Source: Marsupella aquatica (taxonomy: Eukaryota; Plantae; Marchantiophyta). Taken from it: DNA of 64,000 nt. The stretch lies in assembly GCA_973895155.1 (NCBI GenBank), contig OZ316895.1:19792803-19856802 (forward strand), given 5' to 3'. Shown piece by piece: positions 5,964-41,019 of the stretch. The translations under genes and the position numbers were made by a program. Position 1 is the first letter of the stretch, and every line of letters begins with the position of its first letter. Under the pieces are notes generated by a model. That model ran no database searches. It was given only the letters and a program-made list of their open reading frames with translations, and was not told where the DNA came from.

Positions 5964-5980
5964 GGCCCTTTTTTTTCTAA

Positions 5981-9500: not shown

Positions 9501-10289
9501 TTATGGCTTGCAGATCGACCAACAAGAAACTGTCAGCGGTTGAGAAACATTGTGAAATTCAGGGAAAGAGAAGGCGCCTGTGTTCGTCCCTTATGAGGTT
9601 AGGGTTTTGAAAATTTTTCTTATGATCCCGATCGGGTCCTGATTTGCTCTCGATCCACCCGGCTTCATTCAAGGCTGTCTCTGTTTGGCTTCCGGTCTCT
9701 GCTCTTCTCTTTCTGCCTCTTGTTAAGGTTGTCAACTCATCGCCTCGAGTGATTTAGGTTGATCTGGCCTGGTTGGGTAGAAGGAAGCAGCGCGGCTGAA
9801 CTCGATCTCTCTTGCCTCAGCCATAGCTTTCCACTTGACTCAAATCATTGCCTTGAATACTGCTTTCCCACACGATCTTCAGAATCACCCTTCAAAACAA
9901 AATTTCTTTTGATCATATCACAGCCTTCATAAGCTTGCTCTCGGCCATAATGCTACATCATGTCGTTGCTTCAACGTGACTCATGTTCTCTTGGTGGTTC
10001 AAACTACTAGTCTTCTCACTCCCAATTCAATTCTCCTCCATAACTTGGAAATCCTTAAGAGAACATTCATTCATCATAGCCATAGGGAAATTCCTAAAAA
10101 AAAAATTCATGATCAAGCTCAGCTGGTCTAGAGTCGTGCTGATAACGTGTTGAGGAATGATGCGGGAAATGATAATGAGATTCCTCTCTATAGAATGAAT
10201 GGGTGCATCTCTTTATATAGTCTCCGTCCGAGTTATCCTATATGGTAACTATGGTTAAGGTAACCATGGAGTCTAGTTAGGGTATAACA
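6587..10289 (-). mobile_element. Non-autonomous LTR retroelement inserted in the Ulp1 domain
   Basis: 142-bp LTRs at 6587-6728 and 10148-10289 (TG..CA, one mismatch seen); TSD ATTTC at 6582-6586 and 10290-10294; PPT at 6729-6739; PBS-like CGTTATCAGCACG on - next to 10148; no recognisable pol. Confidence 0.92.
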
Positions 10290-11149
10290 ATTTCGAGCCT
10301 CCCAAAAGTTTTCTGATTTCCCCCAAAGCGAATCTAGGAACAACACCTCTTTTCCAGTTAAATCAATCACTGCCAACACCCAATGCTCCCTGTTTGCCTG
10401 GTGGATAGGGACCAATATCTTGTCATAATCAAATATGTTTTCTGTTTTGGTCCATCGAGCAACATTGGCAAAACAGTATACGGGCATTGAGAGCAACGTG
10501 TAGAATGTTGTGATGAAAAATGCACACTTTGGATAGCCTCTTGATCTCCCCCTAAACTGCAACAAGGCCAAATATGCATCGATGATATCTGAATGTAGCC
10601 ATTGAGCTGCTGTTCTTCCCGGGGTTCTTCCTTCAGACAAGCATCTCATTGACGCCTTGGTCAACTTGTAATCTACAAAGTTGAACAGTACTTCCTCGTC
10701 TAGGAGCTCTATGGATAGACATGTGGATACTATGTCGGAAAAGTCTTGAGAGCAAACTACTTCAGCAAATAACCCAGGTATCCGGGTATTCCCACCACGT
10801 GCTGCATAGGATTGAACACCATGGCATTAGGTATCATCTTCATGTGAGCTATAGGTCACAAAAGAAGGGTGAGCTATCTTGTCACTATCACTGCTGACAC
10901 TCTCACTTTCATTGTAGTCTACCTCTACTGCTCTATCATCTACAAATCTAGATTTTTGCCTCTTTGTGTACTTCTCAGCTACACCCTTGAGCCGTTTGAA
11001 GGGGCATGAATCAACAATCCCTTCTGCGTAAGTTGGAAGGCAAAATCTTTATGTCCGACAGAAAGGTTTTGATGTTTCCTCCCATGCTTCACGGACTTTG
11101 TTCTTGTCCGATGTGTGCCATTGTTCGGACTCGATGTTCCTATAGTGAA
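10290..11149 (-). pseudogene. Ulp1 protease exon, N-terminal part with catalytic His and Asp
   Basis: WLHSDIIDAYL...FFITTFY...KILVPIHQANREHWVLAVIDL...FLDSL; the frame extends up to 11149 through two TAA codons. Confidence 0.88.
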
Positions 11150-11289
11150 CTGCCTATTGGTTAAGTAGACAGTTTAAGGTAATACCATAATAATGTGGAA
11201 CTTCACATTTTTATTGATCCTCACCATGGCACAATGTAAATTGCAAACTATCTACAACAAATGGGTTCTTGGATTCAACGTTTACTCAC

Positions 11290-11800
11290 AATCCTGAGCA
11301 TCCCCACCCTTGCCTTCTGTAGCATCCTCCTCTGAATCAGACTCAAGGACCAGCTTCTTCCGCCCTTTAGGCTTTTTAGTCTCCTTGGCCTCCTCCTTCT
11401 TACTCTCCTTGCCCTCCACCTTGGTCTGATTGCCCTGCTGCATTGAAAGGAGTTTTGACACCACTGTCAAAGCTGCTGACTCACCAAAGTAGTCATGCGC
11501 TTCCATCCCAAATACTAGTCGCCCACAATTATTGGCAGCTTTGTAGATAGCACCAAAGTGGACATTCCAAGAAAATACGATATTGCCGGGACTGGTGATG
11601 TGCTCTATGATGCATTGCAAGGTTGCAGGCGATAAGGTACCGGCTAATTTGTCTCTCACTGCATCATCTTCCTTTGTAAAATTGGATAGAGTATTGCTCT
11701 TTGCTGGGCACAAGTCACCAGTAATTGGCTTCATAAGTACCTTTGGGAGGGTCACCTCTGTACCCTTCATGGCGAATATATCCAAATGCAGATATTGAGC
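11290..11800 (-). pseudogene. Exon encoding the C-terminal half of a beta-class N6/N4 DNA methyltransferase-like fold plus a charged linker
   Basis: LSPATLQCIIEHITSPGNIVFSWNVHFGAIYKAANNCGRLVFGMEAHDYF follows the N6_N4_Mtase pattern kP..L...li...t.pGd.VlDpF.GsG....Aa...gR..iG.E....y, but FxGxG is degenerate; acceptor GACAG ends at 11801. Confidence 0.6.
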
Positions 11801-11854: not shown

Positions 11855-12320
11855 TCCTACCTATCTCAGAGAGGCTCTCCAAGATTCCAAGTACCTATCT
11901 CAGAGAGGCTCTCCGAGATCCAAGCTACCTATCTCAGAGAGGCTCTCCAAATCCAAGCTACCTATCTCTCCGAGATGGATCCTACCTATCTTAGAGAGGC
12001 TCTCCGAGATCCAAGCTACCTATCTCAAAGAGGCTCTCCGAGATGAATCCTACCTATCTTAGAGAGGGTCTCCGAGATCCAAGCTACCTATCTCAGAGAG
12101 GCTCTCCGAGATGGATCCTACCTATCTTAGAGAGGCTCTCCGAGATGGATCCTACCTATCTCAGAGAGGCCCTCCAAGATGGATCCTACCTATCTCAGAG
12201 AGGGTCTCCGAGATGGATCCTATTTGAGAGAGGTTCTCCTACCTATCTCAGAGAGCCTCTCCGAGATCCATGGTACCTATCTCAGAGAGGCTCTCCGAGA
12301 TGGATCAGGCTCTTTGAGAT
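11855..12320. repeat. Palindrome array B (intronic), about 12 copies at 34-bp period; resumes at 19859-19965 after the copia insertion
   Basis: Unit approximately CCTACCTATCTCAGAGAGGCTCTCCGAGATGGAT. Confidence 0.92.
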
Positions 12321-12675
12321 TGATCCTGTTGGGTATTTACTCTTATGTCTAGGTTAGGTATGATGTGGTTGGTACAACAACGTGGGTTGGTACAACTATG
12401 TGGTTAGGTACAACTACGTGATTAGGTACAACTATGTGGTTAGGTACAACTACATGATTAGATACAACTATGTGGTTAGGTACAACTAAGTTGCACACTA
12501 TATCATAAGAGGCATGTGTGCTTGGAGAGGTAGAACCAAGGCTCATTGTTATGGAGCCACTTGAGAGATAGGGAGAGCTTACACTGTGGAGACTCGATGT
12601 AGCCGACGGGTTTAGAGTTCAGTAAAGCTCTCTTGTGTGTTCCCGTGGACGTAGCCTCAAGGAGGTGAACCACGT

Positions 12676-14435
12676 TGTCCGGGTGACCGTATTTTCTGGC
12701 AAGAGCATGTTGGCTCTTTTGAAGTTAACCTTGCATGCTCATAAGTTCTACACTAAAATCAAAATGATAATTCTAGTAACAAGGGTAGTGGGTATTAAGA
12801 AAGGTTCAGATCCATGACTTCAATAAAGGACAAAGATGATGCACTCCCACTCCTCTTGGTACGACACCACTGGGTATATTATTGGCTCGTTAGAAACCAT
12901 AACAGCAGTTGCAAACTGAGCTCCAAAATGATAGGTTAGATGTTGCCTCATAGATCGTTTATCTAAAAGATGGACTCTAATCAAAAACGGAATACGAAGG
13001 GGAAGATCAGGGATAACTCTCTCTCCTGGATTCATGATGGCTCTCCTATTCCTTTGCTATCCGGGCCAAAGGACGCCCCACCCCTATATTCCCAAAGAAA
13101 CCTTATTCCCTAAGGTCCCATCTATAAGTCTACCACTCATTCCTTTGCTATCCGGGCCAAAGGACGCCCCACTACTATGTTCAAGGCACAAAAGAGCTTC
13201 ACAACCTTGAATGATAAACACTGCAGAATGAGGGGAGAGTGCCCCTCACCACTTTATTTATAGTGCACACCAAGAGGGCATGGATCAAGCCCAAGCACTT
13301 GGATGAAGGCCAAGTGTCAAACATCTAATACCAAAGAGTGTGCTAGTACTGTTCATAGTTGGTGAAACTACTTTTAGTAGGTGAAACTACCATGCGTTGG
13401 TGGAACTACTATGCGTTGGTGGACCTACTGTGCGTTGGTAAAACTACTGTGCGTTAGTAAAACTACTATGCGCTGATGGATCTACTGTGCGTTGGTAGAA
13501 CTACTATGCGTTGGTGAATATTATTGTAGTTGGTGCTACTCATATGCATTGGTGGAACTACTATAGTCCGTTAATATAGCTAAAGAGTTTTAATAAAATC
13601 TAAATTTAATAATCTAACTACTAAATTACTTATATAATCTATAGCATATTAAAACAAACAATTTTTTATAACTTAAGAGAAAATCACGATATATCACCCC
13701 TACCAAACCTGTGCATCCTCCGGTATGCACCACACCTAGAATCGTTATATGTCTTCTTCATCTAAAGCCTCATAGTCGTCGGGTTCAAACTCTTCCTCTG
13801 TCACAAATCAAGTTCGTCGTTTAAACAATTTCACTCGCTTCCCTGCATAGGGATTGCGATGAATTGCTCCATCAAGTTCTCTTACCACATATGTTGCATT
13901 AGGACGAACCTCCTCCACCACAAATGGTCCTCTCCAACGACGTGCAAACTTCTTCAGAGTAGAATGTTGCTGTTCCAATCCTCCCTCATAGATCAAGACC
14001 CAATCTCCATTCTGGATGGGAATTGGTCTCAAACGATGGGTCTTGTCAAATCGTTCCTTATTCTTCTCACGAGCCTCCTTTAGCCTTAGTAACGCCTCCT
14101 CAATCTTCTCCTTGGTCTGGCTAAAGTGCTCAATCCTTCGCTCTAGCAACTTTTCTCGGGAGATTCTATCTTGCCATTCAATCATCCTCCAACTCTGAAC
14201 ATTTTTCTCAATCGGCATCAAAGGCAAATGTCCAAAGACTAATTCGGCAGGCGTAATTCCTGTTGTGGTAGTGCATGTCATTCAATCTGCCAAAAGAGCA
14301 AATGGTAGAAGATTGGGCCAAAGCGATGGTTTTCCTCGGTAAGATTTCACCAAGGCATTCACTATTGGTGGGTGCCCTCGCTCAATCTTTCCATTTCCTT
14401 CTGGGTTGTAGGCAGTAGTGAGTTTGAGCTTGATG
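12676..14435 (-). mobile_element. Truncated Ty3/gypsy fragment (3' LTR 12676-13696, PPT, integrase C-terminus) inside the copia 5' LTR
   Basis: TTAYNPEGNGKIERGH...GITPAELVFGH...RWRGPFVVEEV (integrase core end and GPY/F motif); purine tract GGTAGGGG on - immediately before TGATATAT at 13696. Confidence 0.85.
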
Positions 14436-14927
14436 TTGAACCGGTCAAAACGATTTCGACGACGAAGGGTGGTAAGGGGTTTTGAGGGTTCGAGGACATG
14501 TGTCAGCCCCTCGATTGTTCTTCCAAAATTCCCACAGGGCCTGTACAAGGGTCATAGAATATTCCAAAAAACCAGAGAGCTATTTTTTGACCGTCCGACA
14601 AAGATTGCATCCGCCGAACGGTAACTTTTTTGGTTATTTTTTGGCGAGGTCGTAGCCATTGAAGTTGGCAAGCGGCGCACCAATCACATTGCAATTCTGA
14701 CAACGGGTTGTACTTGGTATTTCGGTTATTCCCTGAGGTGGTCAAAACGGGGGAGTTTCCCAAGGTTTTACCCACCTCGACCGAAATTTGAATAACTTTT
14801 CCGTCAAATTTTGATTTTGATTTCGGTTTTCAGTATTGGACTCCTAGCTTTGTGGGCTACGCGGCGGTGTTGAGTTTTGAGTTTTTTGAGAAGTTGTGAA
14901 AAACAACATTTTTTGTGATTTTCTCAT

Positions 14928-17900
14928 ATGAATGATTCGGAGGAGTTTTTCGAAGACGTGGAACTTGAAGCACGAGGATCACCGCGGAGGTTTCAGGGGC
15001 AGAGAGAGGAGCAGGAGGAAGAGCACGTGACACCGATACCATCACCGGTGCGGCGTGTGGTGGAGGAAGCTGTACTACTACCGGAGCTCACGGTAGTGCC
15101 AAAGAAGAAGATGGGGACTTTCAAGCTTGGGGGACCCAAGTATGAAGTGACAAAGTATGATGGGCGCTCTGACTACTTGCTATGGGAGAAGCAGGTGAAG
15201 GGAGTGCTCTATGCGTCAGGGATGGGCCAATTGCTGAGCCCTCGTGAAGACGATGTTGATGAGAAACAATGGGACCGCATGCAGGAGCAGGGAGTGTGGT
15301 GTGTTACACTCTATCTCATGCCTCCCATCATCAAGCAGTTGGGTGCACATAAGGATTGCATGTCCTTGTTTACGGAATTGCAGAGCAAGTATCACCGCAA
15401 GGAGTTGTCGAACCGGCTCTACACTTCCTACAAACTGATGAGTTTCAGGATGAAGGAATCCGGTACGAAGTTGCAAGACCATGTGGATGCTTTCAACGAC
15501 ATGGTCGTTGACTTGGAAAACCTTGGGGAGACTTTGAATGATGAGACGAAGGCTCTGCAGCTTCTTAGTTCATTGCCTCCATCTTACCAGTCCCTATCAC
15601 GAGTGTTGTTGCATCGTGATAGGGATACCATTTCATAAAATGACGTGGTAAGTTCTCTGCTTAGTGATGATCTTCAGCAGAAGATGCACATCACGTCACA
15701 GCCTTCATCATCTGGTGCTGCCCTCAATGTTAACCGTGGAAGGAGTATGCAGTGACCAACTGGGGACCGTAGAACCCAGTTTAGATCTAAATCCAGATCT
15801 AAGTCCAAGGGTAAATCCCCTCAGAGGAGGCAGGTGACATGTTGGAAGTGCAACCAAGTTGGACACTTCAAGCGAGACTATAAGGGAAAGGCAGCGGAAA
15901 CTTCATCGGCAAATGTGGCTAGGGCTGATGGAGAAGCTGATTTACTCAATGATGAGTATGTTTTATGAAGTCGGGGGTATGCCCTGTGCACGTCATCTAG
16001 GAGAGTAGATGATGTATGGATTCTTGATTGTGCTTGCTCTTTTCATATTTGTTACATTCGTGAGTTTTTCAGTTCTTACTCTGTTTCAAACAGTTCAGTT
16101 CTGATGGGAAATGATCACTCCTGTCAAATTGAGGGAATTGGGTCTGTGAAGATTAAAATGTTTGATGGCGCTGTGCGCACAGTGTCCGAAGTCAGGTATG
16201 TACCTGGCATGCGTAAGAATCTGATTTCACTCGGTGTGTTGGATTCAAATGGTCATCAATGGAGCGTTATTGATGGTGAACTTCAAGTCAGGTCGGGAGA
16301 GACAGTGATTTTGAAGGGGAGTAGACAAAAGAATTTGTATGTGTTACAGGGCAATACTGTATGTGGAGAGGCCAATGTAACCAAGTCTCACGAGGAGATG
16401 ACTCAACTGTGGCATTCATGGCTAGGCCACATGAGTGAGAAGGGTTTGGCTATCTTACGGAAGAATGGACTCATTTCTGATTTGCAATCTTGTAAATTAG
16501 AGTTTTGTGAGCATTGCATTCTTGGAAAGCAGCATCGTCGTGCTTTTGGTGTTGGAACTCATCGTTCCAAAGCGGTTCTTGAGTACATACATAGTGACGT
16601 GTGGGGTCCATCCCCGACTCCCTCACACTCTGGAAAATTATACTATGTATCATTTATTGATGATTACTCAAGATTTGTGTGGATTTATTTCATGACGCAT
16701 AAGTCTGATGTCTTGTCCATTTTTAAGAAGTGGAAGGCCTAGGTGGAGAATCAGACTGGAAACACGATCAAGTGTTTGGATACAAGGGTGAAGAATCTGA
16801 GGTCAGACAACGGCGGGGAGTACACTTCAATGGAATTTGAAGAGTACTGTTCAGAACAGGGGATAACTCGCCATCTCACCATAGTTTATACTCCGTAGCA
16901 GAATGGTGTCGCTGAGAGACTCAATCGGACACTGTTGGAGCGGTCATGGAGTATGTTGAGCCAATCAGGTTTACCACAAGAATTTTGGGCAGAAGCTGTC
17001 AATACCGCAGCTTATTTGGTAAATCTTTCTCCTTCTAGTGCTATCAATTTCAAAACGTCGTTTGAGATGCGCTATAAGCGGCAAGCAGACTATCATGGCT
17101 TGGTAGTTTTTAGAAGTGATGCATATGCTCTCACACCGAAGCAGAATAGGATCAAGTTGGATCCTACCTCCAAGAAATGTGTTTTTCTTGGGTACCAGAG
17201 TGGTGTGAAAGCCTATAGGCTATGGGATCCTATTGCCTGTAAGCTCGTTGTCAGTAGGGATGTTTCCTTCAATGAATCCAGATTATTGAAGGAGGGGGAG
17301 AATACTCAGGTCTCCCGTACTGACAAAGGAAAATCTTCTATCCCGGATCTCGTTGAGGGGGAGATTGGTTATGAGGTGCATGACCGGAGAGAAGGAGTTG
17401 CTCCAATTATGGAGCTGGTTCCTGTGCCAGAGGAACCAGAGGAGTTTGTTGATGCTAGTGAGCAGCAAGTGGATGTTGTTGAGCTTCAAATTGTACCAGC
17501 ACACACAGATCAACCGGAGTCATCGGCTAGAAGAACATTTGGTCGCACTGTACACGCTCCACCAAGGTATGGACAGTGGGTTGATTCATCTCAACTGCAA
17601 GAGGATGATTTTACAGCTGATGATGAGGGTGATGCGTTAATTTTGGAAGAAGGGGAACCTTCTTCATTTCATGAAGCAAGTGCTTCAAAGGAGAAGCATA
17701 AGTGGACTGCAGCAATGCAAACGGAGATGCAGTCACTAAAGGACAACAAAACTTGGGAGCTTGTTAAGCTGCCTAAGGGTCAGCAAGTGGTGGACAGCAA
17801 GTGGATTTATAAGCTGAAGGATAATTCCATAGGAGGTGGATCGAAAGTCTACAAGGCTAGGTTGGTAGCAAAGGGATTCACACAAGAGAAAGGTGTGGAT

Positions 17901-19213
17901 TACAATGAGGTCTTCTCACCAGTTGCTAAGTACTCTACAATACGACTATTGTGTGTACTTGTTGTAATGTTTGGTCTGCTGCTAGATCAGATGGATGTTG
18001 TCACAACTTTCCTCTATGGCACATTGGAAGAGGTGATCTTCATGAGACAACCGCTAGGTTTTGTGAAGAGAGGACAGGAGGAATTGGTTTGCAGATTGCT
18101 GAAATCCTTGTATGGGTTGAAGCAGTCACCAAGACAGTGGAACAAGCGGTTTGACGATTGGATTCGGTCACAAGGTTTTCACATAAGTGTATTTGATCCT
18201 TGTGTGTATTTGAAACCGGTAAAGAATGTTGTCTTTGGGTTCATTGTTTTAGTACTTTATGTGAATGATATGCTAATTGCAGCCAAGGATAGGTGTGAGA
18301 TTGTTAAGCTCAAGGCACTGCTTAGTGCAGAGTTTAAGATGAAGGACTTAGGGCTAGCTAAGAGGATTTTGGGTATGGAGATCACTATGGACTTGGAGGC
18401 TGGCAAACTATGGTTAACGCAGAGCAGTTATGCGAGGAAGGTAATTGCAAGGTTCAACATGGGGAATAGCAAGCCAGTAAATACCCCGTTGGCTCCACAC
18501 TTCAAGTTATTATCAGCGTTCTGTCCTACGGATGACATAGAGAAGGGGTTGATGTCAAAGGTTCCGTATGACAAGGCAGTGGGGAGTCTCATGTATTTGA
18601 TGACTTGCACTAGACCTGATCTTGCCATGGCTATGGGCAAGGTGAGCAGGTACATGTCAAATCCAGGGAAGGTACACTGGGAAGCAGTGAAGTGGATTAG
18701 TACTTGAAGGGTACCGTGGATCATGGTCTTTTATTTGATGCGAATGCAAAGAATGCTAAATCATTGATTGGCTATGTTGATTCTGACTATGGACAAGATT
18801 TGGACCAAAGGAGATCAACAACAGGATACGTGTTCACACTTGGCGGTGGATGCATAAGTTGGAGGTCTACTTTGCAGAAGTGTATTGCTCAGTCTACTAC
18901 AAAAGCGGAGTATGTTGCAGCTGCAGAAGCAGCAAAGGAAGCAATTTGGTTGGATAGACTTATCACTGAAATGGGATTGCCACAGGGGAATGTGAAGCTC
19001 CATTGTGATAGTCAAAGTGCGCTCCACCTTGCTGTGAACCAGGTGATGGACAGCAGAGTGAAGTACATTGACGTCAGGTATCATTTTATCAGGCAGACTG
19101 TGTCTGATAATTTGTTTGAGCTAGTCAAGATTGATGGTAAACTCAACCCGGCTGACGCATTTACCAAAGTGATTCCTTTGGAGAGTTTCTTTAGACACCG
19201 TGACGTATTGTAG
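14928..19213 (+). pseudogene. Copia gag-pol (gag, zinc knuckle, protease, integrase, RT, RNase H) with several stops and frameshifts
   Basis: [74 protein letters not shown]. Confidence 0.95.
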
Positions 19214-20001
19214 GTTTTGCAGTTGCATCATAAGTAGAGTTTTCTTAACATTCATTATAATTACTGATATATGCTCTTCCTCATTCCTATGTATTAGGCT
19301 ACGGCTTAGTTCTGGTTTGCTCTAGTTAGAGAGGGAAACCGGTTTGGTTTTTGTCCAGAACTTCCCGCTGAGGGATCATATACATTGGCAGTATTACTCT
19401 CCCCTAGACCAGAGTCAAGGGGAAGATTGTTGGGTATTTACTCTTACGTCTAGGTTAGGTATGACGTGGTTGGTACAACAACGTGGGTTGGTACAACTAC
19501 GTGGTTAGGTACAACTACGTGATTAGGTACAACTATGTGGTTAGGTACAACTACGTGATTAGGTACAACTATGTGATTAGCTACAACTAAGTTGCACACT
19601 ATATCATAAGAGGCATGTGTGCTTGGAGAGGTAGAACCAAGGCTCATTGTTATGGAGCCACTTGAGAGATAGGGAGAGCTTACACTGTGGAGACTCGGTA
19701 TAGCCGACGGGCTTAGAGTTCAGTAAAGCTCTCTTGTGTGTTCCCGTGGACGTAGCCTCAAGGAGGTGAACCACGTATCTCTTGTGTCGACTATTGTGCG
19801 TTGGATGGTTCATGGGCTTGCCGTTGCGATCGTCGTCTATGCTCAACAGATCCTACCTATCTTGGAGAGCCTCTCCGAGATCAATCTTACCCATATGGGA
19901 GAGGGTGTCCGAGATCGTAATTGTGGACACATTTTTCAACTATCTCGGAGAGCCTCTCCGAGATGACTTCTATTGAAATGCCAAAATTAAAGTGAACTTA
20001 C

Positions 20002-23000
20002 AGCTTTTTTGCTTGATACCATGTAGCAAGGTGTGTCATTCCAAATGGTGAATGAGTCAATGTGATCCAACTTCTCAGCCCAGTCAATGTGAAGGTACTC
20101 AAAGATTGAGTCTGTGTGGGCAAATAAACCACTGTGCACGCACAAGAAACCGTCGTTTGTGAGTAGAGAGTCTGCCAATGTCGTCGCCACTTCTAGGTCA
20201 CTGAGCCAAAATCTATTCCACACCGGAACATTATTTTCAGCCTGCGCTATGCGATAATCTGTCCCTAGCTTAACAAAGATCATATCACAACCATGGCCCT
20301 TAGGTACACCATCAACTATCCAACCTTGTTTTTGCAAGCCAACCAACTTCAATTTCTTACACCAGTCCCGGAATTCCCTCATGAATGGAGGGAGAGGCAA
20401 CTTTCCCATGGTTGGCTGGTATTTGTCCATCAACCAAGAAGAACACTCTAGTAAGGTCATATGCTCTTTTGCATGGCAAAATCGCAGAGCAGATGTAATA
20501 GCATGAGAGGGCCGAGGTACTCCCAAAATTTTGCAAAGATCATCCTCCGGAATTTTTGGGGCTTCTATTGAAACTGGCTTCTTTGTGGGTTTGTCTATTC
20601 TCTTCTCGGCTTTCTTCTTTGGCCGACTGGTTGGCTTACCAGAGATCTGTGGTTTGCTTGGGGTCCCACTTGGGGTCCCGCTTGGGGTTGAAAGGTCAGG
20701 CTCCTCCTCCTCCTCATGGCCCTCTGCATTGTCCCCGGTGGCCATCTGATCCTCCTCTCCATTGTCCCACTCGCCGCTTTCTCATCCTCCTCTCCATTGT
20801 CCCTGGTCTTTCTCGGCTCCATCTTCTCATCCATTGGACAACGTTTGCTTGAGGTAGACCCTTGGGTTCCAATCTTTTCTTTACTTTTTTTTGTAGAACA
20901 AAGTAAGGAGTTTAGTATACATTTTACAATGATACTATCTCGGAGAGGCTCTCAAACATAGGTCAGATGTACAATGTAAGCTAGGGTGTAAACCTTACAT
21001 GGAGTGCCTTGTTCTGAGGTGGTGTCTTTTGATTCCTTTTCTTTCTTCCCCCGAACCTTCTTCCCATCATACCCTGGCTCTCCAAGAGGCAAAATGGCCT
21101 CCAAGTCCAATGCAGCCTTTGTCGACTGCTCAAGATCTGGCAACTTTGAAGGCGCAAAAAGGTTGTCTGGTAGTTTCCCTTCCTTTAGGAGGTTGGCAGC
21201 TTCCTTCTCTTTGGGCGTAATGAACTCAATCCAATCATTGAACTCCATGAATCATGGACAATTTTATCTCTCCCAGTCTAAAAAGACTCTTGCTGCTGGC
21301 TTCAGCCCGTCTGTTGGATACATTGACAGCGGGCCTTTCTCCGTCATCCATGCAGTTAGAGCACTTGGTAACACTTTGAAAGTAGAGGCTCCAATGCTCT
21401 CCTGATGAAGTAAATATCTGACCACACACCTCTTTGCACGCTTCCTCCACACATCTTTGCTTTGCTTTGCTGGATTCCACATCTTATTGCCCTCCTCATA
21501 GGACCGAGTCTGTACAAATTGCTTGTAAATCTTGTTGTGAAACTCAACAAACTCGTCTTTGCTTCCATTGAAGTTCTGCCACTCACCATAATCATATGCA
21601 CTCTCGGCAAACTCTGACATGATCAAACTGCCAACATGGGCAATGTAACACCACATTGACCACACTAGCAACCAAGCTCTCACTGCTAAATCACCATATA
21701 CATCTGGATGGTGGTATCACTTATTATCCTCCGCGGTTGAGAAATGAACGCGTAGTAACTTGTTTCGACACTCAGCAGGCATCACTGCACTTGCAAACAA
21801 TTTAACTCGATCCAACCCCACTTGCACTTGTGGCCGATCTTTTTGTTTACTCTGCAACTGGTGCAGCTCCTCGGCAATCTCCAAAAATTCCTCTCCATTT
21901 GCTGGATTGACAATCTGAGCAAACTTCTGCATTTTGCCCTCCCAAGACCTACAGGCTTCACTCGTCATGAGTGCGGTTTCCTTCTGGAACTTATCCGAAC
22001 TCCAGGCATGGCCAATTGCAGCATCGGTTGCCATCTCCTTCGCAAGACAAATCCTCCCGTCTTCAATATTATTCCACGACATGATGTACACAATAGCATC
22101 CTTTGTCATGCACTTGCTATAGCATGTCTTTCCATGCCCATGGCTTCTTGCTGCTAAGAATCTAGCATAACCATCCGGATGAAGCAATGTTTGATACTCC
22201 TCCAAAGGTGTCATCAACAACTTCTTCACCCTGTCTGCATCGGTCAACCAAGATGTCTGCACAATGTTTGCGCTTATCTTGCGTAAAAGAAGCGACAAAT
22301 GTTGGCGTCAAAGGCTATGTACAAGCAAATTACATCTCTGTCAGATGCTCTCCGAGAAGGCATGGATATCTCGGAGAGGCTCTCTGAGAAGGCATGGATC
22401 TTCAAGAAGGCATGGATATCTCAAAGAGGCTCTCCGAGAAGGCATGGATCTTCAAGAAGGCATGGATATCTCGGAGAGGCTCTCCGAGAAGGCATCGCTC
22501 TCCAAGAAGGCATTGATATCTTGGAGAGGCTCTCTGAGAAGGCATCGCTCTTCAAGAAGGCATGGATATCTCGGAGAGGCTCTCTGAGAAGGCATCGCTC
22601 TTCAAGAAGGCATGGATATCTTGGAGAGGCTCTCCGAGAAGGGAAGGTTCTTTCTATCTCAGAGAGCCTCTCCGAGATAGCATTTTGAGTGCCAAACATT
22701 GTATGTGTGTATGTATCTATCTTGGAGAGCCTCTCTGAGATAGGATTGCCTATGTGGGTGCAAAAGAACGACAAATGCAAGAACAACCAAAAACCAAGGG
22801 GGCGGTCACTTACGCATTGAGGCCGTGCATTTCCTGCTCAATCTTCCTGAATCCTTGTTTTCCAGGTTGTAGAAGAGAGAATCTCATGCAAGGGTGGTAC
22901 TTCTGCTCGTCAAGATACTCTTCAGCCACTTGTCTCCATGCATTCAGGCGATGATTTCCATCAAACACCCAAAACATCTTACCCTTCAAAACATGAAACT

Positions 23001-23486
23001 CCTCGTACTCATCACACTCCATCTCAATTTTTGCGTTAGCTTGTTCCCATAGAGGGTCCCAATCCGCGGAAAATTCAGACAGGAGTGGGTGGCGTTATGC
23101 GCATTGGTCTCTGATATGTGGAATTCCCAAAACTTGTCCACATACCCATTCTTCACGAAGTCCTTCTTCATCTTGAGAATGGAACTCTGTTGGAGAGTCC
23201 AAACTGCCTCCATTGTCATCAAACGACATAGTGGAATCCAAGGTGGCTCTCTGGGCTTCCCGCTTGGTTCAGCTCCGAATGAAACCAAGTACTCCCCAAC
23301 AATCCCCTCGAATGCACCTTTGTTCAAACGTTCACCAGACACATTTTCAAAGTTCAGAACCTTCGGCTCCAGCTTCTTCACTGTGTGAGTTTCCCGACCA
23401 CTGGCGGTGCTCTCTGTTGTCTTTGATCTGGTCTGCCGACCAGACAATGAAGGAGAGGGAGTGGGTTGCTTCCTCTTCCCTGTCAT
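20002..23486 (-). pseudogene. MULE cargo gene, 5' exons: ParB/Sulfiredoxin-like domain, unknown helical region, N-terminal half of MTase-like fold
   Basis: ATG at 23486; WIPLCRLMTMEAVWTL...KDFVKNGY and FWVFDGNHRLNAW (ParB/Srx GxHR motif); ORFs 21717-22298, 21264-21683 and 20952-21248 share one frame broken by point stops; CDMIFVKLGTDY...DSLLTNDGFLCVH...FTIWND resembles MTase motifs IV-VII; donor GTAAGT at 20001 joins 11800 in phase 0. Confidence 0.7.
22345..22742. repeat. Palindrome array C (intronic), about 8 copies, mostly 50-bp period
   Basis: Unit approximately GGCATGGATATCTCGGAGAGGCTCTCCGAGAAGGCATCGCTCTTCAAGAA, inside the intron that opens with GTAAGT near 22813 on -. Confidence 0.9.
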
Positions 23487-23519
23487 TTTCAAACCTCACC
23501 AACTACTGAATTGCACGAG

Positions 23520-24589: not shown

Positions 24590-25866
24590 TGTCAGAGAAG
24601 CTCTCCACTCTGACATATAAAGTCGGGACTTAAGTCGGAGAGGCTCTCCAAGATGACATGTCATGGAGGACCCATGTCAAAAAGGCTCTCCGAGATGACA
24701 TGTGTGGGGACTTAAGTCGGAGAGGCTCTCCGAGTTGACATGTAAAGTGGGGACTTAAGTCGGAGAGGCTCTCCGAGATGACATGTAAAGTGGGGACTTA
24801 AGTTGGAGAGGCTCTCCGAGATGACATATCATGGAGGACCCATGTCAGAGCCTCTCCAAAATTGAATATACACAAGATCAGACCTTGGAGAGGCTCTTTG
24901 AGTTGACATATCAGGTTGGTGATAACTTTGGAGAGCCTCTCTGACAAATATTGGGCCTAATCCTTGCTACACACCTGAAGATGGCATCTCGAAGAGCCTC
25001 TCCAACATGGGTGGAGACTTCATACCTGCGCAAGATGGTATCTCGAAGAGCCTCTCCAACATGGGTCAAGGCTACATACCTCCACAAGATGGCATCTTGG
25101 AGAGCCTCTCCAAGATGAAACTTGGTGAGATCCGGTGCAAGATCTAATCTCGGAGAGCCTCTCCAAGATGGGTCGAGGCTACATACCTCCGCAAGATGGC
25201 ATCTCCAAGGAGGTGTTTACAAAAGACAGCAAACAGGAAACAAGATTTAATAACAAAACTGGTAACAGGAAAATGGGTGAAAAAAAAATTTGAAATTTTT
25301 TTTGAAATTTTTTTTTGAGAAAAAAAAAAGGTTTTTTTTCAGTCGACCAGTTTTTTTTGCTAGCGCCCAAAGCTAGCCAAAAATGTTGCATTGTTAATTT
25401 TTTTTGGAAATAACATGTTTTAGGAGACATTTTTAAATTGTCATTTTTCCTGGTAACAATGATTTTTTCCTGGTAATTATAGCATATTGAAAACAGGAAA
25501 AAAAATTCTTGTTTACCTGTTTCCTGTCTCCATCGCTATACCCTCTCCAAGAGCCTCTCCAAGATGAAACTTGGTGAGATCCAGTGCAAGATCTAATCTC
25601 GGAGAGCCTCTCCAAGATGGGTTGAGGCTTCATACCTCCGCAAGATGGCATCTCGGAGAGCTCTCCAAGATGAAACTTGGTGAGATCCGGTGCAAGATCT
25701 AATCTCAAAGAGCCTCTCCAAGATGGTTCGAAGCTTCATACCTCCGCAAGATGGTATCTCAGAGAGCCTCTCCAAGATGAAACTTGGTGAGATCCGGTGC
25801 AAGATCTAATCTCGGAGAGCCTCTCTAACATGGGTTGAGGCTTCCAGATGGCATCTTAGAGAGCCT
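24590..25866. repeat. Palindrome array D between the divergent cargo and transposase genes, about 20 copies in at least two unit types
   Basis: Units GGGACTTAAGTCGGAGAGGCTCTCCGAGATGACATG (about 42 bp) and GATGGCATCTCGGAGAGCCTCTCCAAGATG (about 54 bp, alternating spacers). Confidence 0.9.
25210..25543 (-). mobile_element. MITE family A, copy 2, inserted into one palindrome
   Basis: 8-bp TSD TCTCCAAG at 25202-25209 and 25544-25551; reverse complement similar to 3064-3382. Confidence 0.88.
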
Positions 25867-25974
25867 AATGGACACCCTAAACTTAGTCACTGTCACTAAT
25901 AGTTTTCATGCTCACTCACAAGGGTACATTGTCAAGAAGGATTCTCACATATTCAACGAGGGAAGAATATTTGT

Positions 25975-26345
25975 AACAATTTTTACGCTCGGTCTGGGCG
26001 ATAAGGTACTCTGACAAAACAATCTTGACATATTCAACAAATAAAGAAGCGAGTCTAACAATTTTTACGCTCTATCTAGGCGGTAAGGTACTCTGACAAA
26101 ACAATCTTGACATTCAACAAAGAAAAAAGCGAGTGTAACAGTTTTTACGCTCGGTCTGGGCGATAAGGTACTCTGACAAAACAATCTTGACATATTCAAC
26201 AAAGAAAGAAGCAAGTCTAACAGTTTTTACGCTCCATCTGGGCAGTAAGGTACTCTAACCAAACAATCGTCACATATTCAGAAAGAAAGAAGCGACTCTA
26301 ACAATTTTTATGCTTTGTCTGGGCAATAAGGTACTCTAACAAAAC
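25975..26345. repeat. About 4.5 copies of an 80-82 bp tandem repeat upstream of the transposase
   Basis: Unit AACAATTTTTACGCTCGGTCTGGGCGATAAGGTACTCTGACAAAACAATCTTGACATATTCAACAAA.AAAGAAGCGAGTCT starting near 25975, 26057, 26137, 26219 and 26300. Confidence 0.85.
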
Positions 26346-26477
26346 AAAGTCATAAGAATCAATAACAGTTTTCACATACTGTTTGTTGATTAAGTTACGC
26401 TCTTGAGAAACAAAGAGGAATTGAGCAAGCCGGAAAGGCAATAACATCCCTTACATGAACGAGGCATCTCTCGGTGG

Positions 26478-29173
26478 ATGCCACTTGAACTCTCTTGGTG
26501 CTCATTTTTAGTCTTTCTTCAAGTGGTTATCATGGCTGGCCATGTGAGGATCACGTTTCCAGACAATGGAGACGTTGTTGTGCTAGCGACTGATGGTGTT
26601 GTTCGGCATACACCAGACAACAAATTAGCTCCTCGGTTTGATGTTGAGATTGGGGAGTGGGCACTCTTTGAGGCCGGCAATGTCTTACCATTGATTGAGG
26701 CAAACTCAGAGGAGAGTGGAGAGGAAAGGATATGGCATCTAAAAAGTGAAGTTTTGTACGTCCTTCAGCAGAGGGTGTACTCTGTTCCTCTTACTAAAGT
26801 TGGTTTGCAATCTCAAACTGGAGAGAAGATTTCAGAGTGGCCGGCAGAGGTAGAGCAAGCCGAATTTCTTGAAAGTGTTATTGCTGCAATGCTCAAAGGG
26901 AAAGGCACTTTGCGATGTGTAAAGGCTGCCCATTCCATTCTCAGAGTGCATTATCCCCAACAAGTCATGACTCTGCCGGAATGGTATGATGGGGATTGCA
27001 TTTTTGAGCTCCCCGCATTCACAGGTATCCACACAAAGGGTGCCTTCTTCTTGGGTATAGAGCAAATAAATGACTGCTACTTGTGGAGCAAGCTCATCGA
27101 GATAGGGGCCCAAATTGGACCCAACGTGAACAAGGGAGGCTTCAAGTATAAGATTGGGAATGTGAGATGCCTGGGCTCTTTGCAATGTCCACATTCAGAT
27201 TGTCCGGCTTTTACAAGTAAGAAGAGCGCAATTGCACAGAATGGCAGCGAGATAGGGGTGGGAAAAATGAGGTTCCATTTCTTGTTGGGCGACTAGTTCT
27301 AGCAGAGAGTGTGATTTGCGACTTTTGTGATCGGCCTCCTAAGTGTATAGCCAAGTGTCCAGCCAAAATGTTCTACATCACTCCGACCTCTCATGACCAT
27401 TATATTTACAAGCACATGACACGTGTTGCTATGCATGTTGGGAGTCACTCACATCCGGCCAAATTTGTTCTCAAGAAAGATCGAAAAGCTTTCTTACATA
27501 AGTTGATGGAGGAGAAATTGAAGAAGAATCCTCATGCAATGCCGTCTGTGATCAAGAGTGATCTAAGGGATATTTTTGATGACAAGGTTGCTGGGATTGT
27601 CACATTTGAGGAAGTACGGGATCTGAATGAAACATTGGCAATCCTATCAAATCGATCAGTTGTAAGATCTATGATACAGAGCATACGCAAGTATACCCAT
27701 GCCTCATCCAACCTCCAAGTCATCCTTGATCTTCAAAAAGAAACAATGTTTTCATTTGTCAAGAGCACTCTATTTCTAAACCAGAAGCTAGATACAGATG
27801 AGCGCCCACATATTTTCAAGATGACTGTAAAGGGTCCAGGGTCTGGAATCAATCTCATTCGAAGGATGCAGCCTGGTGGAGATCTACAAGACTCATGGGT
27901 GATGTTTGATATCATGCATCGGATGACTGAGAGGCAATGGTACACAATGTCAGCTCATGTGTACGACCACCTATACAGAGGTCTCTGAACAATTTTTATA
28001 TGCGAGCTAGTTTCGGAAGATACTGCTGCACTACAAACTACATGGAAGGTCATGAAGCGAGTGTGTAAGGCAAATGGGCTTGACAATGTTACGTTTTATG
28101 GGTTCATTGTCGATAATACTGCAACTGGGTGGAATGCAGTTCAAAACACATTCTAGGATGGAAGAGTTAATTCTCAAAAGGAGCAATCTGATGCATTTCA
28201 CTAGGCGCAATCAGTGGAGAAGATGATAAAGAAATGCATTCTTCCTGGCAAAGCAGTTGAGCATAAGGAGCTTCTGGATTCATTGAGGGACGCTGCCAAT
28301 GTGGTTCTTGCATTTTGGACTTTTGAGAAGATGAAGGATTGGTGGAAAAATGGGAATGCAATCAAAGGAAAAACCAAGTCACTAGAGACATGGCTTTCGT
28401 GGTGGATTGTGCGGTTCTCCCAATGGGGAAACTTTATTCGGCTGGTAAGTCTATGAATTCTTAGTAATATTCCATCTCGGAGAGGCTCTCCGAGATGATT
28501 AATCTTGGACATGTTAGATAGCCTCTTCGAGATGGACAACGTGGGTCTTCTCGGAGAGGCTCTCCAAGATGGAACATATGGGTAATCTCCGAGATGGAAG
28601 ACGTGGGTACGTCATCTTGGAGAGGCTCTCCAAGATGGAACATATGGGTCATCTCGGAAAGGCTCTCCGAGATGGAAGAGGTGGGTCTTCTCGGAGAGGC
28701 TCTCCGAGATGGAACATATGGGTCATCTTGGAGAGGCTATCCGAGATGGAAGAGGTGGGTCATCTCGGAGAGGCTATCCGAGATGGAATATATGGGTAAT
28801 CTTGGAGAGGCTCTTCGAGATGGAAGAGGTGGGTCATCTCGGAGAGCCTCTCCCAGATGAAACAAATGGGCGACTCGGAAGACATGTTAGAGAGCCAACT
28901 TTTATTTTGTAAACACATGGTTCATCTTAGAGAGGCTCTCCGAGATGAAACACTGGTCATCTCGGAGAGCCTCTCCAGGATGGACCCCGTTGGACATGTT
29001 GCAGATGTACACAATGACCCATGTAGAGTTTTTGGTAATAATCTTTTCTTTGATTTCTATGTAGGACATGGACAGAACTAAGTCTGCATTGATGCTAAAC
29101 CATAGCGGGGCAGAATCCGTGCATGCCGCGATGCGCCGATGGTCTTCCACAACAAAGATTGGGATAGTGCAAT
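26478..29173 (+). pseudogene. Mutator-family transposase, 5' part (GCM/WRKY-like Zn domain and DDE core); intron 28445-29064
   Basis: CLGSLQCPHSDCP...CDFC...CPAKMFY...HVGSHSHP; D1 VMFDIMHR; D2 FIVDNT; CxxH position DAFH; E in NHSGAESVHA after the phase-0 GTAAGT...TGTAG intron; stops and frameshifts present. Confidence 0.85.
28474..28981. repeat. Palindrome array E filling the transposase intron, about 12 copies at 37-38 bp period
   Basis: Alternating spacers GGAACATATGGGTC and GGAAGAGGTGGGTC between palindromes. Confidence 0.9.
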
Positions 29174-29924
29174 CCCGGGGTCCTCACTTAATAACTTCCG
29201 ACCCATCACGCGCGAATAAGTATAGGGTTTTTTAATTCAATTTTCTAGAATACTTAAGAAGTTTTGTGGAAGAACTATAGGGGTTTAAAATTAAATCCCG
29301 CAACTTAGAAGTATAGTAGGGCAGCAAAAAAACCTTGCTCTTCAATATAAGTTGTTAGTATAAGATAGGGGTATTAGCCAACAAAATATATGGGGTATAC
29401 GTGTCAATCTTTTATTGGTCCACGTGGCAATTCCTTTCATAACTTGGTTTAGGGGCACCATGTGGGGGACCATGTGTACTCCATGGCCAATTTGGGTCAA
29501 AATTTAAATTATGGGTGTGAGCGGGAGGTCATCTATGAGGGGAGAAGAGCAAGGGTCAGGCGCGCAGGTCGAGAGCCATTTAGGACCATCGATCCAGGTT
29601 AGTGCCGTTTGTGTCAACATCATGCGGCCATACATTGGTAAGACAGTCCATTCTTTGTTACTTGCAGCGAGACTTGCGGCGGCCATGCAGGGCCTGATTT
29701 AGGGTAAAATTGAGCAGCGATGATCCAACCATCCATTTGTTGGGCCATCGGTTGGTTATGGTTTGCCCTGGCCATTTTGAGAAATTCGTGAACGTCTTGC
29801 AGCGTTTTGGGCAAAAATTGAGAGGGTGAGTCGCGAGGGTAGGGGCTAAACGCTGCCTTGATACTTTTCGAAAGGAAATGCATGCATGTTGCAGGGCGCT
29901 GCGATGCACTGATTGAGGAAGGTT

Positions 29925-30570
29925 GAAGATTGATCGAGGGCGAGATGACTGTGGATGGAGCTGCTGTGATCGAGGGGCACTAATTGCTGTGATCGGGGAG
30001 CTTTGCTGTTTGGGCTCAATGCTGCTTCGATACTTTTCCGAAGGATTTGCATGCATGCTGCAGGGCTTTATATTGAGCTGCAGCTTGATCGGGGGCGGGG
30101 CTGCGACTTTATATTGAGCTGCAGCTTGATCGGGGGCGGGGCTGCAACTTTACATTGAGGAGCTGTGATCGGGGGCAGGCTGCAACTTTCAATTGAGCTG
30201 CTATGATCGGGGCTGCAGCTTTTGATTGAGCTGTTGTACGTGATCGGGGGACAAGATTGAGCAAGGCTGAGATTGATCGGGGGGACAATTGTTGATTGAG
30301 CTGCTGCTGTGACCGGGGGAACTTTTTGTTGAGCTGGAGCTGGGTCGGGGGCGGGGCTGAAAATTTCAATTGACTGAGGAGCTGTGATCGAGGGTGGGGC
30401 TGCAACTTTCGATTGCGCTGCTATGATTGGGGTGCTGCAGCTTTTGATGGAGCTACTGTGATTGGTAAACCTAGATTGGGAATGATGGAGCTATTGTGAC
30501 CGGCAAACCTATGATCGATCGAACCTGTGATTGAGCTGCTATCATCGGCAAACGTGTGGTCGAGTTGCTA
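29925..30570. repeat. Degenerate tandem repeats (GATCGGGG / ATTGAGCTG) in the 5' region of the P-like element
   Basis: Recurring TGATCGGGGGCGGGGCTGCAACTTT..ATTGAGCTG units. Confidence 0.75.
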
Positions 30571-30774
30571 TCAGCGGGCAAACCTACTTTTGGTGGAGTT
30601 TTCTATCCATTGCTCTTAGTGCTTTCGAATTGCCTATGCTGTGTGTCCTACTTTTTGTATAAATTGCACTCGTGATGTTAAGGGCAATGCTCATTTGTCT
30701 GTATGCTTTTCAGTTTACTTGTTGCCACCTTACGCTCCGCAAAGAAACTTCTCGTGCCATGCATCTCATCACTA

Positions 30775-30955
30775 GTCTGCTCTATTGCTCGCTACTCTGC
30801 TCTATTTCTTGCTCTACTCTATTGCTCGTTGCTCTGCTCTATTGCTCGCTGCTATGCTCTATTGCTTGTTGCTTTGTTGCTCTATTGCTCGTTGCTCTAT
30901 TGCTCACTGCTTTGTACCTCGTTGCTCTGTCGCTGCTCTGTACCTCGCTGCTCTT
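30775..30955. repeat. Short GCTCTATTGCTC-type minisatellite
   Basis: Many CTCTATTGCTCG/TTG repeats. Confidence 0.75.
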
Positions 30956-32263
30956 TTGACAGTCCATGCCAATGTTTGTTGTGCAATACCTTGCTTACCC
31001 ATAGCTTCATTTGTTAGCCAGCTTTCTCCTCATCAAGCCAGCTCCTTTGTCCTTGATCATGTGAGCTAGTGTCGAGAGCTCTTAAAGAATCCATGTCTGT
31101 ATCTCCCCCCTCTTTTGCAAGCAGATTTATGAGAGCTTGTCCTGCTTGTAAGGATCCATTGAATGATGGCTTAGCACTCCAGATGTTGAAGTGAGAAGGA
31201 ACTAGGGAAGGAACTTACCAAAAGTGAACACATTTAAGTGAGAGAAATGCCTGAACTGCAGTCGCTGCACATGTTGATCATACTAAAAGCTCATGTTCGG
31301 GTGGCAGTCCAACTCATTCCAAGTTGGCAATAGAGCTTGGACAGGAACTCTGAATTCCATGGATTGCTGAAAATCAATTTAGAAATAGAGGCTTTGACTT
31401 GGCGCAAGGGAGCTAATTCGATCTGCAAGTGCCGTTTCATTCGATCTGCAAGTGCTTGTGGTGGAGTTTCCTCACTGTCCTGCTAGTTTTGAATTGCTTC
31501 CTTTGATTCATTCTGAGTGATTTGATTTTCTTGCTCAATAGAATGTCCTGTCAATCATCTCCCTCTCTTTGTTGCTCTTGAGTTCCCTTTGCTTTGTCTA
31601 GGAGACTTAGATAAACTATTAGCTCTTGGTGAATGCAATATGTGGCTGTTCCTCCAAGGCAATGGAAGGCATTCGTTTATACAAGGTGGGCATTGGTTCG
31701 AGTTGTGACTGAGGTGATTGTGGCTGTGATCAAGGTGCAGCAAGAGTTTTGATCCAAGTAGGGGAATAGCAGATTCGCCCTTGGTACAACAGAATCCCTA
31801 GAGGCACTGTTGTTTCTCCTCTGCCAGCTTGTGTGACATTCATTTGGCTTTGTGTTGTGTAGGTTTTCCAACCAAAGGTTCTCTTCAACATCTATAACTT
31901 GGAACCAGTATTATGCAGTTTGGTATGCCCTGACCCTGGCTCTAGCTGAACTCGAATTGAAATTTAAAGTTGAATTTTAGTCAGCCTTTTCATATGCTCT
32001 TGACTTGTCTTGCAGGATGGATTGGCTTAGGATGTAGTGGAATCATCTGAGAAGCTTCAGCAATATACCAGGGTTCACATGTAAAGATTGTGGAAGGAGC
32101 AGGATTCAAATATCACCATTTGCTGCAGCTACAATCAAACAAGAGATTGATTAAAGGTATGATTCTATCTAGGATGCTTGTAGTTGCAAGTTACATAATA
32201 TCAATCTACTGTTCAATATATGTTGAATGGATGTTGAGGGGTTGCAGAACAAATGTTGAGTGA

Positions 32264-32962
32264 ATGGATGGGCCTGTGTGCAGAGGTAAAACCACTATCC
32301 AAGAAGCAGAGATGGCTTCTGATGTGCCCAGGATTGACATATTTTCCCATAAGGAGCACCACCGCATGGACCCCCCTTGCTGTTTCTTTTGTGATGAGAC
32401 AGACGATGTGGTTTTCTGTGATGGGCCTTGTAGTAGACATTTTCACTTTGTCGGTGGAAAAGGTATGCATGGGCCTAATTGCACTCCTATCACATTGCCT
32501 AAAAACAATGACTGGAGGGCACCTTGGGTTTGTACACTCTGTGCTGCTGGTAGAGCTAGATGCTTTGCTTGTGGCCTCATTGGCAGATTTGAACATCCCA
32601 CAGCAGAAGAATCTCTTGTGCTCCATTGTGCCCACCCTGACTGTTTTTCTCATTACCACCCTGGTTGCCTTAGGGTGCTACTTATGATTGGGGCACTGCC
32701 TGAGAGGTTTCATACAACAAAACCAAACAGCCTAATGTGCCCAAGGCATTTCTGTGAGTACTGTAAAGTCTACAAGGATGGTATTAAAGACTTTGTACAG
32801 TGTCGCAGGTGCCCTCGAAGTTGGTGTCATGATGAGAAACTTGGGGGAGTGAAACACCTCAGGAGGTGTGTGAAGGGCAGGGACCACTGGGATGTGGAAG
32901 GGTGGCGTTTCATTTATTGTCATAGGCATGCAATACCTGATGGGGAATTGGTTCCTACATAG
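32264..32962 (+). CDS. Tandem PHD/C1-like zinc-finger cluster of EDM2/NSD type
   Basis: CFFCD...VFCDGPCSRHFH...CTLC....RCFACG...CAHPDCFSHYHPGCL...CPRHFCEYC...VQCRRCPRSW...FIYCHRHAI matches the Cys/His layout I recall for EDM2-family PHDs; uninterrupted 232-aa ORF. Confidence 0.75.
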   Translation: MDGPVCRGKTTIQEAEMASDVPRIDIFSHKEHHRMDPPCCFFCDETDDVVFCDGPCSRHFHFVGGKGMHGPNCTPITLPKNNDWRAPWVCTLCAAGRARCFACGLIGRFEHPTAEESLVLHCAHPDCFSHYHPGCLRVLLMIGALPERFHTTKPNSLMCPRHFCEYCKVYKDGIKDFVQCRRCPRSWCHDEKLGGVKHLRRCVKGRDHWDVEGWRFIYCHRHAIPDGELVPT

Positions 32963-33188
32963 CCACATACCTCTTAGAGTTTCTGAAATTGGTAGAAATG
33001 CTTTGGTAGAGGGTTGGTACAAAGCAAACTTATTCACTAGACTAATTACATGTGAACTATGATCAACAAGATTTTGTTTGTGTTGGACTTCAACTTTTTT
33101 GATCAAAAGATTTTTGTAACTATTGTGGAGTAATGTCTAATATGCTTCATATCGTTTTGTTTATTGTGCTGTATGGCAGGTTCATTGT

Positions 33189-41000: not shown

Positions 41001-41019
41001 GTCCAAAAAAATGTCGGTG

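Follow-up and report, generated by a model that had tools for sequence, protein, structure and literature searches.

What does a ParB/sulfiredoxin (Srx)-like domain do inside a eukaryotic DNA transposon? The question is raised by a 64,000-nucleotide stretch of the liverwort Marsupella aquatica (contig OZ316895.1, positions 19,792,803 to 19,856,802; hereafter the window), which carries a Mutator-like DNA transposon with a ParB-fusion gene of four exons and about 1,100 codons, read on the minus strand from 23486 to 11282. The ParB/Srx domain was recognised in an initial annotation, which missed its fusion to helical and methyltransferase parts and the palindromes that occupy the non-coding DNA of the element. 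Taken together, these features suggest a dimeric protein that would load on the palindromes, cover its own element and counter host silencing, a reading to which an even chance is given here. The exons are arranged as follows.

22813 to 23486, minus strand: exon 1, a disordered N-terminus and the ParB/Srx-fold domain (ATG at 23486, splice donor GTAAGT after 22813)
20999 to 22272, minus strand: exon 2, an all-helical middle domain with three in-frame stops (putative acceptor position)
20002 to 20888, minus strand: exon 3, an acidic/basic linker and the N-terminal half of a beta-class N6/N4 methyltransferase fold (5' boundary approximate)
11282 to 11800, minus strand: exon 4, the remaining, C-terminal half of this fold (tblastn with P0188, E 3e-8)

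Both peptides described in the initial annotation are present in exon 1, served by one start ATG and one splice donor: WIPLCRLMTMEAVWTLQQSSILKMKKDFVKNGY is located in the minus-strand open reading frame (ORF) 22986-23495 and MFWVFDGNHRLNAWRQV in the minus-strand ORF 22810-23094. The frameshift that had been proposed near 23075 is a one-base loss placed a few bases away, as contigs from all four public sequencing runs used as comparison copies (two studies, two organisms) hold an extra base behind 23081. Similarly, C replaces T at the stop codon 21717-21719 in the run contigs, and an extra base is found at the exon 3 frameshift near 20765 in three of the four runs. Because these contigs restore the damaged sites, the gene in the window is a decayed member of a multi-copy family, which is open at those positions. 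The Trp of AVWTL (TGG at 23199-23201), suspected to be a decayed Arg, is indeed Arg in 120 of the 137 sequences covering that column in a 163-sequence alignment built with one profile from 14 close homologues and the best 149 new ones. Exceptions include Gln (five), Cys (four) and His (two), and most are expected products since CpG decay yields these residues. The DGNHR motif, on whose conservation the annotation depended, is invariant in all 14 close homologues, which all end at the same intron as window exon 1. In the larger alignment the GNHR columns are kept at G 146/153, N 152/153, H 143/153 and R 128/151, while an Asn about 45 residues downstream is invariant (96/96).

This conservation bears on the idea of passive cargo, in which the gene is a remnant of old bacterial or phage DNA that does nothing for the element. 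The ParB-fusion gene is broken in the window and in most of the related loci (80 fetched, clustered to 47 non-redundant), as expected of cargo. However, the reading frame of other copies is open at the frameshifts and the first stop, the motifs persist among sequences just 25-40% identical, and 474 representatives reach E <= 0.001 in a full HMMER search. The head-to-head layout with a transposase gene also recurs among the loci and is reported in a brown alga (PMC12477816), and passive cargo is thus considered highly improbable.

The domain is predicted to have the ParB/Srx fold. An AlphaFold2 model of the homologue P0002, 62% identical to the window's second ParB/Srx fragment, displays a predicted local distance difference test (pLDDT) score of 72.8, with a core above 85. 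The top nine VIA matches of this model are all ParB/Srx proteins, led by KorB (Z 6.8, root-mean-square deviation 3.1, 93 aligned residues) and including SerK (6.3), PadC (6.1), Srx (5.7) and SbnI (5.6); the next match, the first to an unrelated protein, scores Z 3.0. The first 23 Foldseek rows listed all belong to the same superfamily (E 0.1-2.5), and a viral structure library returned mostly phage ParB proteins (best E 0.003). Superfamily members therefore fill the top structural matches, as the initial annotation would predict; in the viral library, the matches include many ParB proteins of phages and also a DNA methylase of a mycobacteriophage. No relative of the ParB part was detected by sequence in viral contigs. 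An eL24 match in PDB sequences (E 0.006) covers the insert of the domain and is taken as chance. The Atlas comparison places the domain with a ParB/Srx cluster (0.94) and with fungal DUF3723 (0.93), and a longer region with DUF3723 (0.82), the DUF3723 query being P0002 residues 95-247 (window equivalent 22813-23200). Fungal DUF3723 proteins may hold a ParB/Srx domain; no publication combining the terms DUF3723 and ParB was found in a literature search.

The putative nucleotide pocket is selectively conserved. Residues R60, R103, R104, N136 and R139 of Caulobacter ParB are needed for binding cytidine triphosphate (CTP), and Q58, E102 and E135 for its hydrolysis (PMC8367383); E78 and E111 of Bacillus ParB are likewise needed for hydrolysis, and PadC, which is devoid of them, binds without hydrolysing (PMC8494293). 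Mapped by motif position rather than by superposition, the equivalents of R60 (R 120/137), R104 (R 128/151) and N136 (N 96/96) are kept in the family, the R103 position is His, and the Q58, E102 and E135 equivalents are absent. The hydrolysis glutamates are replaced, with GERR becoming GNHR (N 152/153) and the Glu of ENLQR becoming Leu, Ile or Val in 85 of 100 sequences. Because the binding residues are kept and the hydrolysis residues lost, nucleotide binding with little ParB-type turnover is expected, and the protein, judged from its residues, probably binds a nucleotide but does not hydrolyse it as ParB does. The base of that nucleotide is reported not to be predictable from ParB sequence (bioRxiv 10.1101/2025.10.10.680097).

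Beyond the ParB/Srx domain, the gene is colinear with the 1,207-residue Riccia protein P0187 over exons 1, 2 and 4, and weakly so over exon 3. Exon 2 is 30% identical to P0187 residues 320-657, and its modelled domain is all-helical (pLDDT 68). A structure search with this middle domain gave generic helical matches alone and no recognised helix-turn-helix (HTH) or dimerisation domain, and an HTH guessed by eye at its start found no support in structure comparison. Of the non-redundant related loci, 22 have 2.5 kb or more of downstream DNA, and 16 of these contain a middle domain and 16 a methyltransferase-like exon. All ten long homologues looked up come from Riccia sorocarpa or two Adiantum species, which would make a seed-free land plant the likely host.

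Beta-class N6/N4 DNA methyltransferases carry a catalytic motif (D/N/S)PP(Y/F/W), here motif IV, and an S-adenosylmethionine (SAM)-binding motif FxGxG, here motif I; in the window's lineage the former is lost and the latter degenerate. Motif IV in exon 3 is FVKLG in the window and FVQLG in most other copies, and nearly all contigs of the four runs hold VQLG, with no Asp, while motif I in exon 4 is degenerate (SWNVHFG). The two halves are separated by intron 3, into which a long terminal repeat (LTR) retrotransposon has inserted. A profile of the N-terminal half made from the fetched loci scored neither window exon 3 nor the Riccia proteins; a second one from Riccia and Adiantum placed window exon 3 at the top of 16,983 fragments (E 3e-4), so the alignment of exon 3 to the methyltransferase of its relatives is weak but consistent. 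The methyltransferase fold is likely dead in the window's lineage, and relatives may differ.

The state of this fold is central to another explanation, in which the protein is an active self-marking enzyme whose ParB domain targets the methyltransferase to the palindromes, writing N4-methylcytosine (4mC) or N6-methyladenine (6mA) on the element. The motif IV region does precede motif I, the order expected for beta-class N6/N4 methyltransferases, and PF01555 matches P0187 (E 5e-5; 23.7 bits against a curated cut-off of 26.7) and P0188 (E 2.5e-5), both under the cut-off. In relatives, motif IV retains its Asp and one Pro in the form D-hydrophobic-P-x (DLPT, DIPE, DYPE, DVPF, DFPI), and their motif I is better preserved (DFAGGWG in Riccia, DCHAMTG, DWNASTG). 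Furthermore, the phage matches of the domain, weak as they are (E 0.01-0.2), belong to DNA methylases, the use of 4mC enzymes by plants is exemplified by DN4MT1 of Marchantia (motif TSPPY), and self-methylation has been put forward in print for the algal proteins (PMC12477816). In contrast, the Asp of motif IV is missing from nearly all contigs of the window's lineage in each of the four runs, motif I is degenerate, and P0086 (DVPF) alone among the inspected relatives keeps the aromatic residue of the catalytic motif. Active self-marking is therefore regarded as rather unlikely.

The pair of terminal inverted repeats (TIRs) and the target duplication around the gene confirm the transposon setting that the initial annotation had proposed.

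5923 to 41060, unstranded: Mutator-like DNA transposon, with a TIR pair and the 9-bp duplication ATTTAGTCA on both sides
5923 to 5976, plus strand: left TIR, 54 nt, 74% complementary to the right one
41007 to 41060, minus strand: right TIR, pairing with the left one

The element spans 35.1 kb including two nested insertions, and about 18.4 kb after their removal. A target duplication of 8-11 bp is given as a feature of Mutator-like elements (MULEs; PMC6446971).

The palindrome TCTCGGAGAG(G/C)CTCTCCGAGA, 21-23 bp long, is present in 74 copies in the non-coding DNA of the element, counted with up to 4 mismatches to the core. All 74 lie in the element proper, with none in 29 kb of flank and none in 17 kb of nested insertions, against 0.04 copies expected by chance in simulations. 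They are distributed as follows.

22337 to 22740: nine palindromes in intron 1 of the ParB gene, period 50
20938 to 20958: a single palindrome in intron 2 of the ParB gene
11864 to 12300: 12 palindromes in intron 3 of the ParB gene, period 34
19860 to 19963: three palindromes continuing the intron 3 array past the inserted LTR element
24633 to 25830: 14 palindromes between the divergent ParB and transposase genes, periods 43-54
28475 to 28980: 11 palindromes in an intron of the transposase gene, period 37
6010 to 6190: four subterminal palindromes at the left end
40033 to 40862: 20 subterminal palindromes at the right end, period 42-44

The 23 core columns agree in 6-8 of the 8 arrays while periods and spacers differ, and the divergence of the spacers is the telling part of this comparison because the copies were picked by their core. 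Another palindrome, GACGCTTTnnAAAGCGTC, is found in six copies at 719-2165 in the left flank, beyond the end of the Mutator-like element, where it perhaps marks the end of another element of like kind.

Palindromes also accompany the gene in related loci. The nearest relative among them, L001, holds ATCTCGG-N9-CCGAGAT twice in the same intron, a 23-bp palindrome whose outer arms are identical to those of the window palindrome. Palindrome arrays of their own, with 6-17 copies and at least 2 above three shuffles, are found in 11 of the 47 non-redundant loci; copies lie inside introns of the ParB gene in L005, L008, L036, L043 and L049, while the array of L026 lies 9 kb from ParB and may be unrelated.

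These observations can be joined in a putative mechanism. The conserved Arg, GNHR and Asn residues would bind a nucleotide, with little or no hydrolysis of the ParB type, as in PadC or VirB, and the helical region after the ParB domain would read the palindrome. Nucleotide binding would close the dimer, which could then spread out from the arrays; the methyltransferase fold might serve as a DNA-binding or base-flipping module that shields cytosines and adds no methyl groups; and the outcome would be a family-specific anti-silencing resembling that of VANC. These last three steps are the weakest of the scheme. VirB, described as a CTP-dependent clamp acting as an anti-silencer, provides a precedent. 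The ParB protein is preferred over the transposase as the palindrome binder because red algal ParB genes adjoin inverted-repeat arrays under a different transposase superfamily. That the protein also slides as a clamp, in line with the nucleotide-gated clamp suggested in the initial annotation, goes a step beyond loading and covering, and is doubtful. Unlikely, too, is the broadest form of the idea, in which Mutator elements of land plants run a nuclear parS/ParB-like system whose nucleotide-gated clamp loads at family palindromes and spreads over 18 kb. Were it true, a dead methyltransferase would be dragged along as a shield against host methylation, and each family would constitute an anti-silencing clamp of its own, addressed by sequence and orthogonal to the others. 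To our knowledge, a nucleotide-gated ParB clamp on nucleosomal DNA has not been shown so far; such a clamp could be used for sequence-addressed epigenome work.

Several observations weigh against the loading of a ParB-type dimer on the palindromes. At the level of the fold, every single structural score is middling (Z below 8; Foldseek E at least 0.1 in PDB), so the evidence lies in the agreement among searches. The HMMER check against PF02195 failed, as the profile matched neither the window fragments nor 14 close homologues nor 55 homologues in Pfam, and a PHROG ParB-like profile is weak (E 0.014, in 5 of the 14); searches against PDB sequences likewise detected no ParB. The fold assignment consequently depends on structure and motifs. 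GNHR without the glutamates is also found in enzymes that use adenosine triphosphate (ATP), such as sulfiredoxin. At the level of the DNA, no such array is present in 36 of the 47 loci, many of which are shorter than 2.5 kb, and L006 and L010 hold the whole gene region and no palindrome array. One of four control stretches, the left flank, has a palindrome array. For 14 hand-picked loci and a custom motif similarity score, ParB identity and palindrome similarity are uncorrelated (Spearman -0.03, permutation p 0.53), and a motif shared by the closest pairs only is also explained by the common descent of the whole element. Most changes within the palindrome fall at its two CpGs, and this clustering indicates that the sites were methylated at some time.

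Some of these points are anticipated if the palindromes are sites of the MULE transposase itself, with the ParB-fold protein performing an ATP-dependent phosphotransfer or nuclease reaction of the Srx, SerK or DndB type, or bridging the ends. DNA transposons often have subterminal repeats to which their transposases bind, and 24 of the 74 palindromes are subterminal; the overall absence of covariation between ParB and palindrome fits as well. SerK and Srx score as well as KorB, weak profile matches to DndB and DUF1015 occur among the homologues, and a 2026 preprint describes sequence-specific activation by a MULE transposase itself. Nevertheless, 50 of the 74 palindromes are internal, 25 of them in the three ParB-gene introns, and inverted repeats are reported to accompany ParB genes in Plavaka elements too. 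Perfect two-fold symmetry would, in addition, suit a dimeric binder of the ParB type. Transposase sites are accordingly held to be an improbable account of the palindromes, and a palindrome-loading ParB-type dimer is preferred.

The presence of a ParB domain in a eukaryotic transposon and the idea of self-binding are already known from algae. The Ectocarpus element Sola1-1_Ec32 encodes a 1,104-residue protein with ParB-like and N4/N6 methyltransferase domains opposite its transposase, and similar proteins are cited in green and red algae (PMC12477816). Compared by description, this protein and that of the window are alike in their two-domain chain, length, strand opposite the transposase, giant DNA transposon and proposed self-binding; the window differs in its land-plant Mutator-like element, its degenerate methyltransferase motifs and a defined, mapped palindrome. 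The ParB-bearing protein PAG3 of red algal (Bostrychia) Plavaka elements lies beside tandem inverted repeats and is also proposed to bind its own element, and homologues of PAG2 and PAG3 are noted in Chondrus Mutator elements (bioRxiv 10.1101/2025.02.11.637652). PAG2 and PAG3 resemble the window gene in joining a ParB-like domain, a giant DNA transposon and inverted-repeat arrays. However, PAG3 combines ParB with a 2-oxoglutarate (2OG) oxygenase and the Plavaka methylase is a separate gene fused to SET (same preprint), whereas the window has ParB and the methylase fold in one chain and a Ulp1 protease as third gene.

Phage fusions of ParB and N6/N4 methyltransferase share the domain pair (bioRxiv 10.1101/2025.10.10.680097) and may be the source lineage of the window gene, which differs from them in about 400 extra helical residues and a linker, its introns and a 35-residue insert in the ParB domain. 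In this context, Iyer 2016 derives some adenine methylases of eukaryotes from ParB-terminase loci of phages. Bacterial ParB/parS, PadC and VirB, as described, are similar in fold, in the phosphate-binding Arg, GxxR and Asn residues and in a palindromic candidate site. In contrast to bacterial ParB/parS, the window protein has no recognised HTH or C-terminal dimer domain, and its candidate site measures 21-23 bp rather than 16. The targets of VANC proteins of VANDAL MULEs are reported as family-specific short motifs amplified as non-coding tandem repeats, and VANC, like the window gene, is a MULE-borne accessory; in the available description it is not presented as ParB-like, and its anti-silencing activity is proven whereas that of the window protein is conjectural (PMC5735166). 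The algal papers put forward the hypothesis that ParB-bearing proteins of transposons bind their own element and modify it, and VANDAL is named in one of these papers as the only proven case.

A literature search found no account of land-plant cases, of the conserved nucleotide pocket or of a dead-methyltransferase variant, although Iyer 2011 and preprint supplements may list plant examples. The locus extends ParB-methyltransferase transposon genes to liverworts and ferns, and supplies a cognate family with an intact member (P0187), an exact 23-bp site and the sites of other families as specificity controls. Because the methyltransferase seems to be inactive in a lineage that retains the ParB pocket and the sites, binding and spreading can here be separated from the writing of a mark.

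The remaining genes and insertions of the element are the following.

26445 to 39929, plus strand: decayed transposase gene, head-to-head with the ParB gene and broken by a nested element
6318 to 10826, minus strand: Ulp1/C48 protease cargo gene in two pieces, 10233-10826 and 6318-6626 (PF02902, E 4.8e-16 and 2.7e-6)
12328 to 19849, plus strand: nested LTR retrotransposon in intron 3, Copia gag-pol broken by stops and frameshifts, 5-bp duplication GATCC
29196 to 38376, plus strand: nested 9-kb element with the termini CACG...CGTG and a duplicated AT, holding a PHD-finger ORF and transposase-like ORFs

The transposase has a Cys/His-rich N-terminus, candidate D/D/E residues read by eye and a C-terminal SWIM finger at 39465-39872 (E 0.019, below cut-off), with no match to a Pfam MULE profile. 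Relatives of it lie upstream of and divergent from ParB in 11 of the 80 fetched loci, and another transposase-like gene takes that place in two of the 80. Just upstream of the transposase gene, at 25957-26347, five copies of a non-palindromic repeat of 80-82 bp are found. The 24 window ORFs scanned gave no ParA-type match.

The LTRs of the nested retrotransposon are 97% identical, and integrase-like remains on its opposite strand at 13808-14551 likely represent a second nested element. In the 9-kb element, the ORF 32264-32962 encodes an NSD-type PHD finger (PF22908, E 4.6e-8), and the long transposase-like ORFs at 33877-37807 have no Pfam match; their motifs resemble those of P-element/THAP9 transposases. 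Relatives of this element adjoin ParB genes head-to-head in L021 and L027, an arrangement suggesting that the ParB gene passes from one kind of transposon to another. Positions 41061-64000 contain several fragments of Copia and Gypsy elements in decay, and 3719-3799 recurs in inverted orientation at 61138-61218, so that older retroelements may surround the Mutator-like element. Downstream of the ParB remnant of L026, an intact 452-codon ORF (L026:14914-16269), which we take to be EXORDIUM/PHI-1-like and of plant type, shows that these metagenome contigs are plant DNA.

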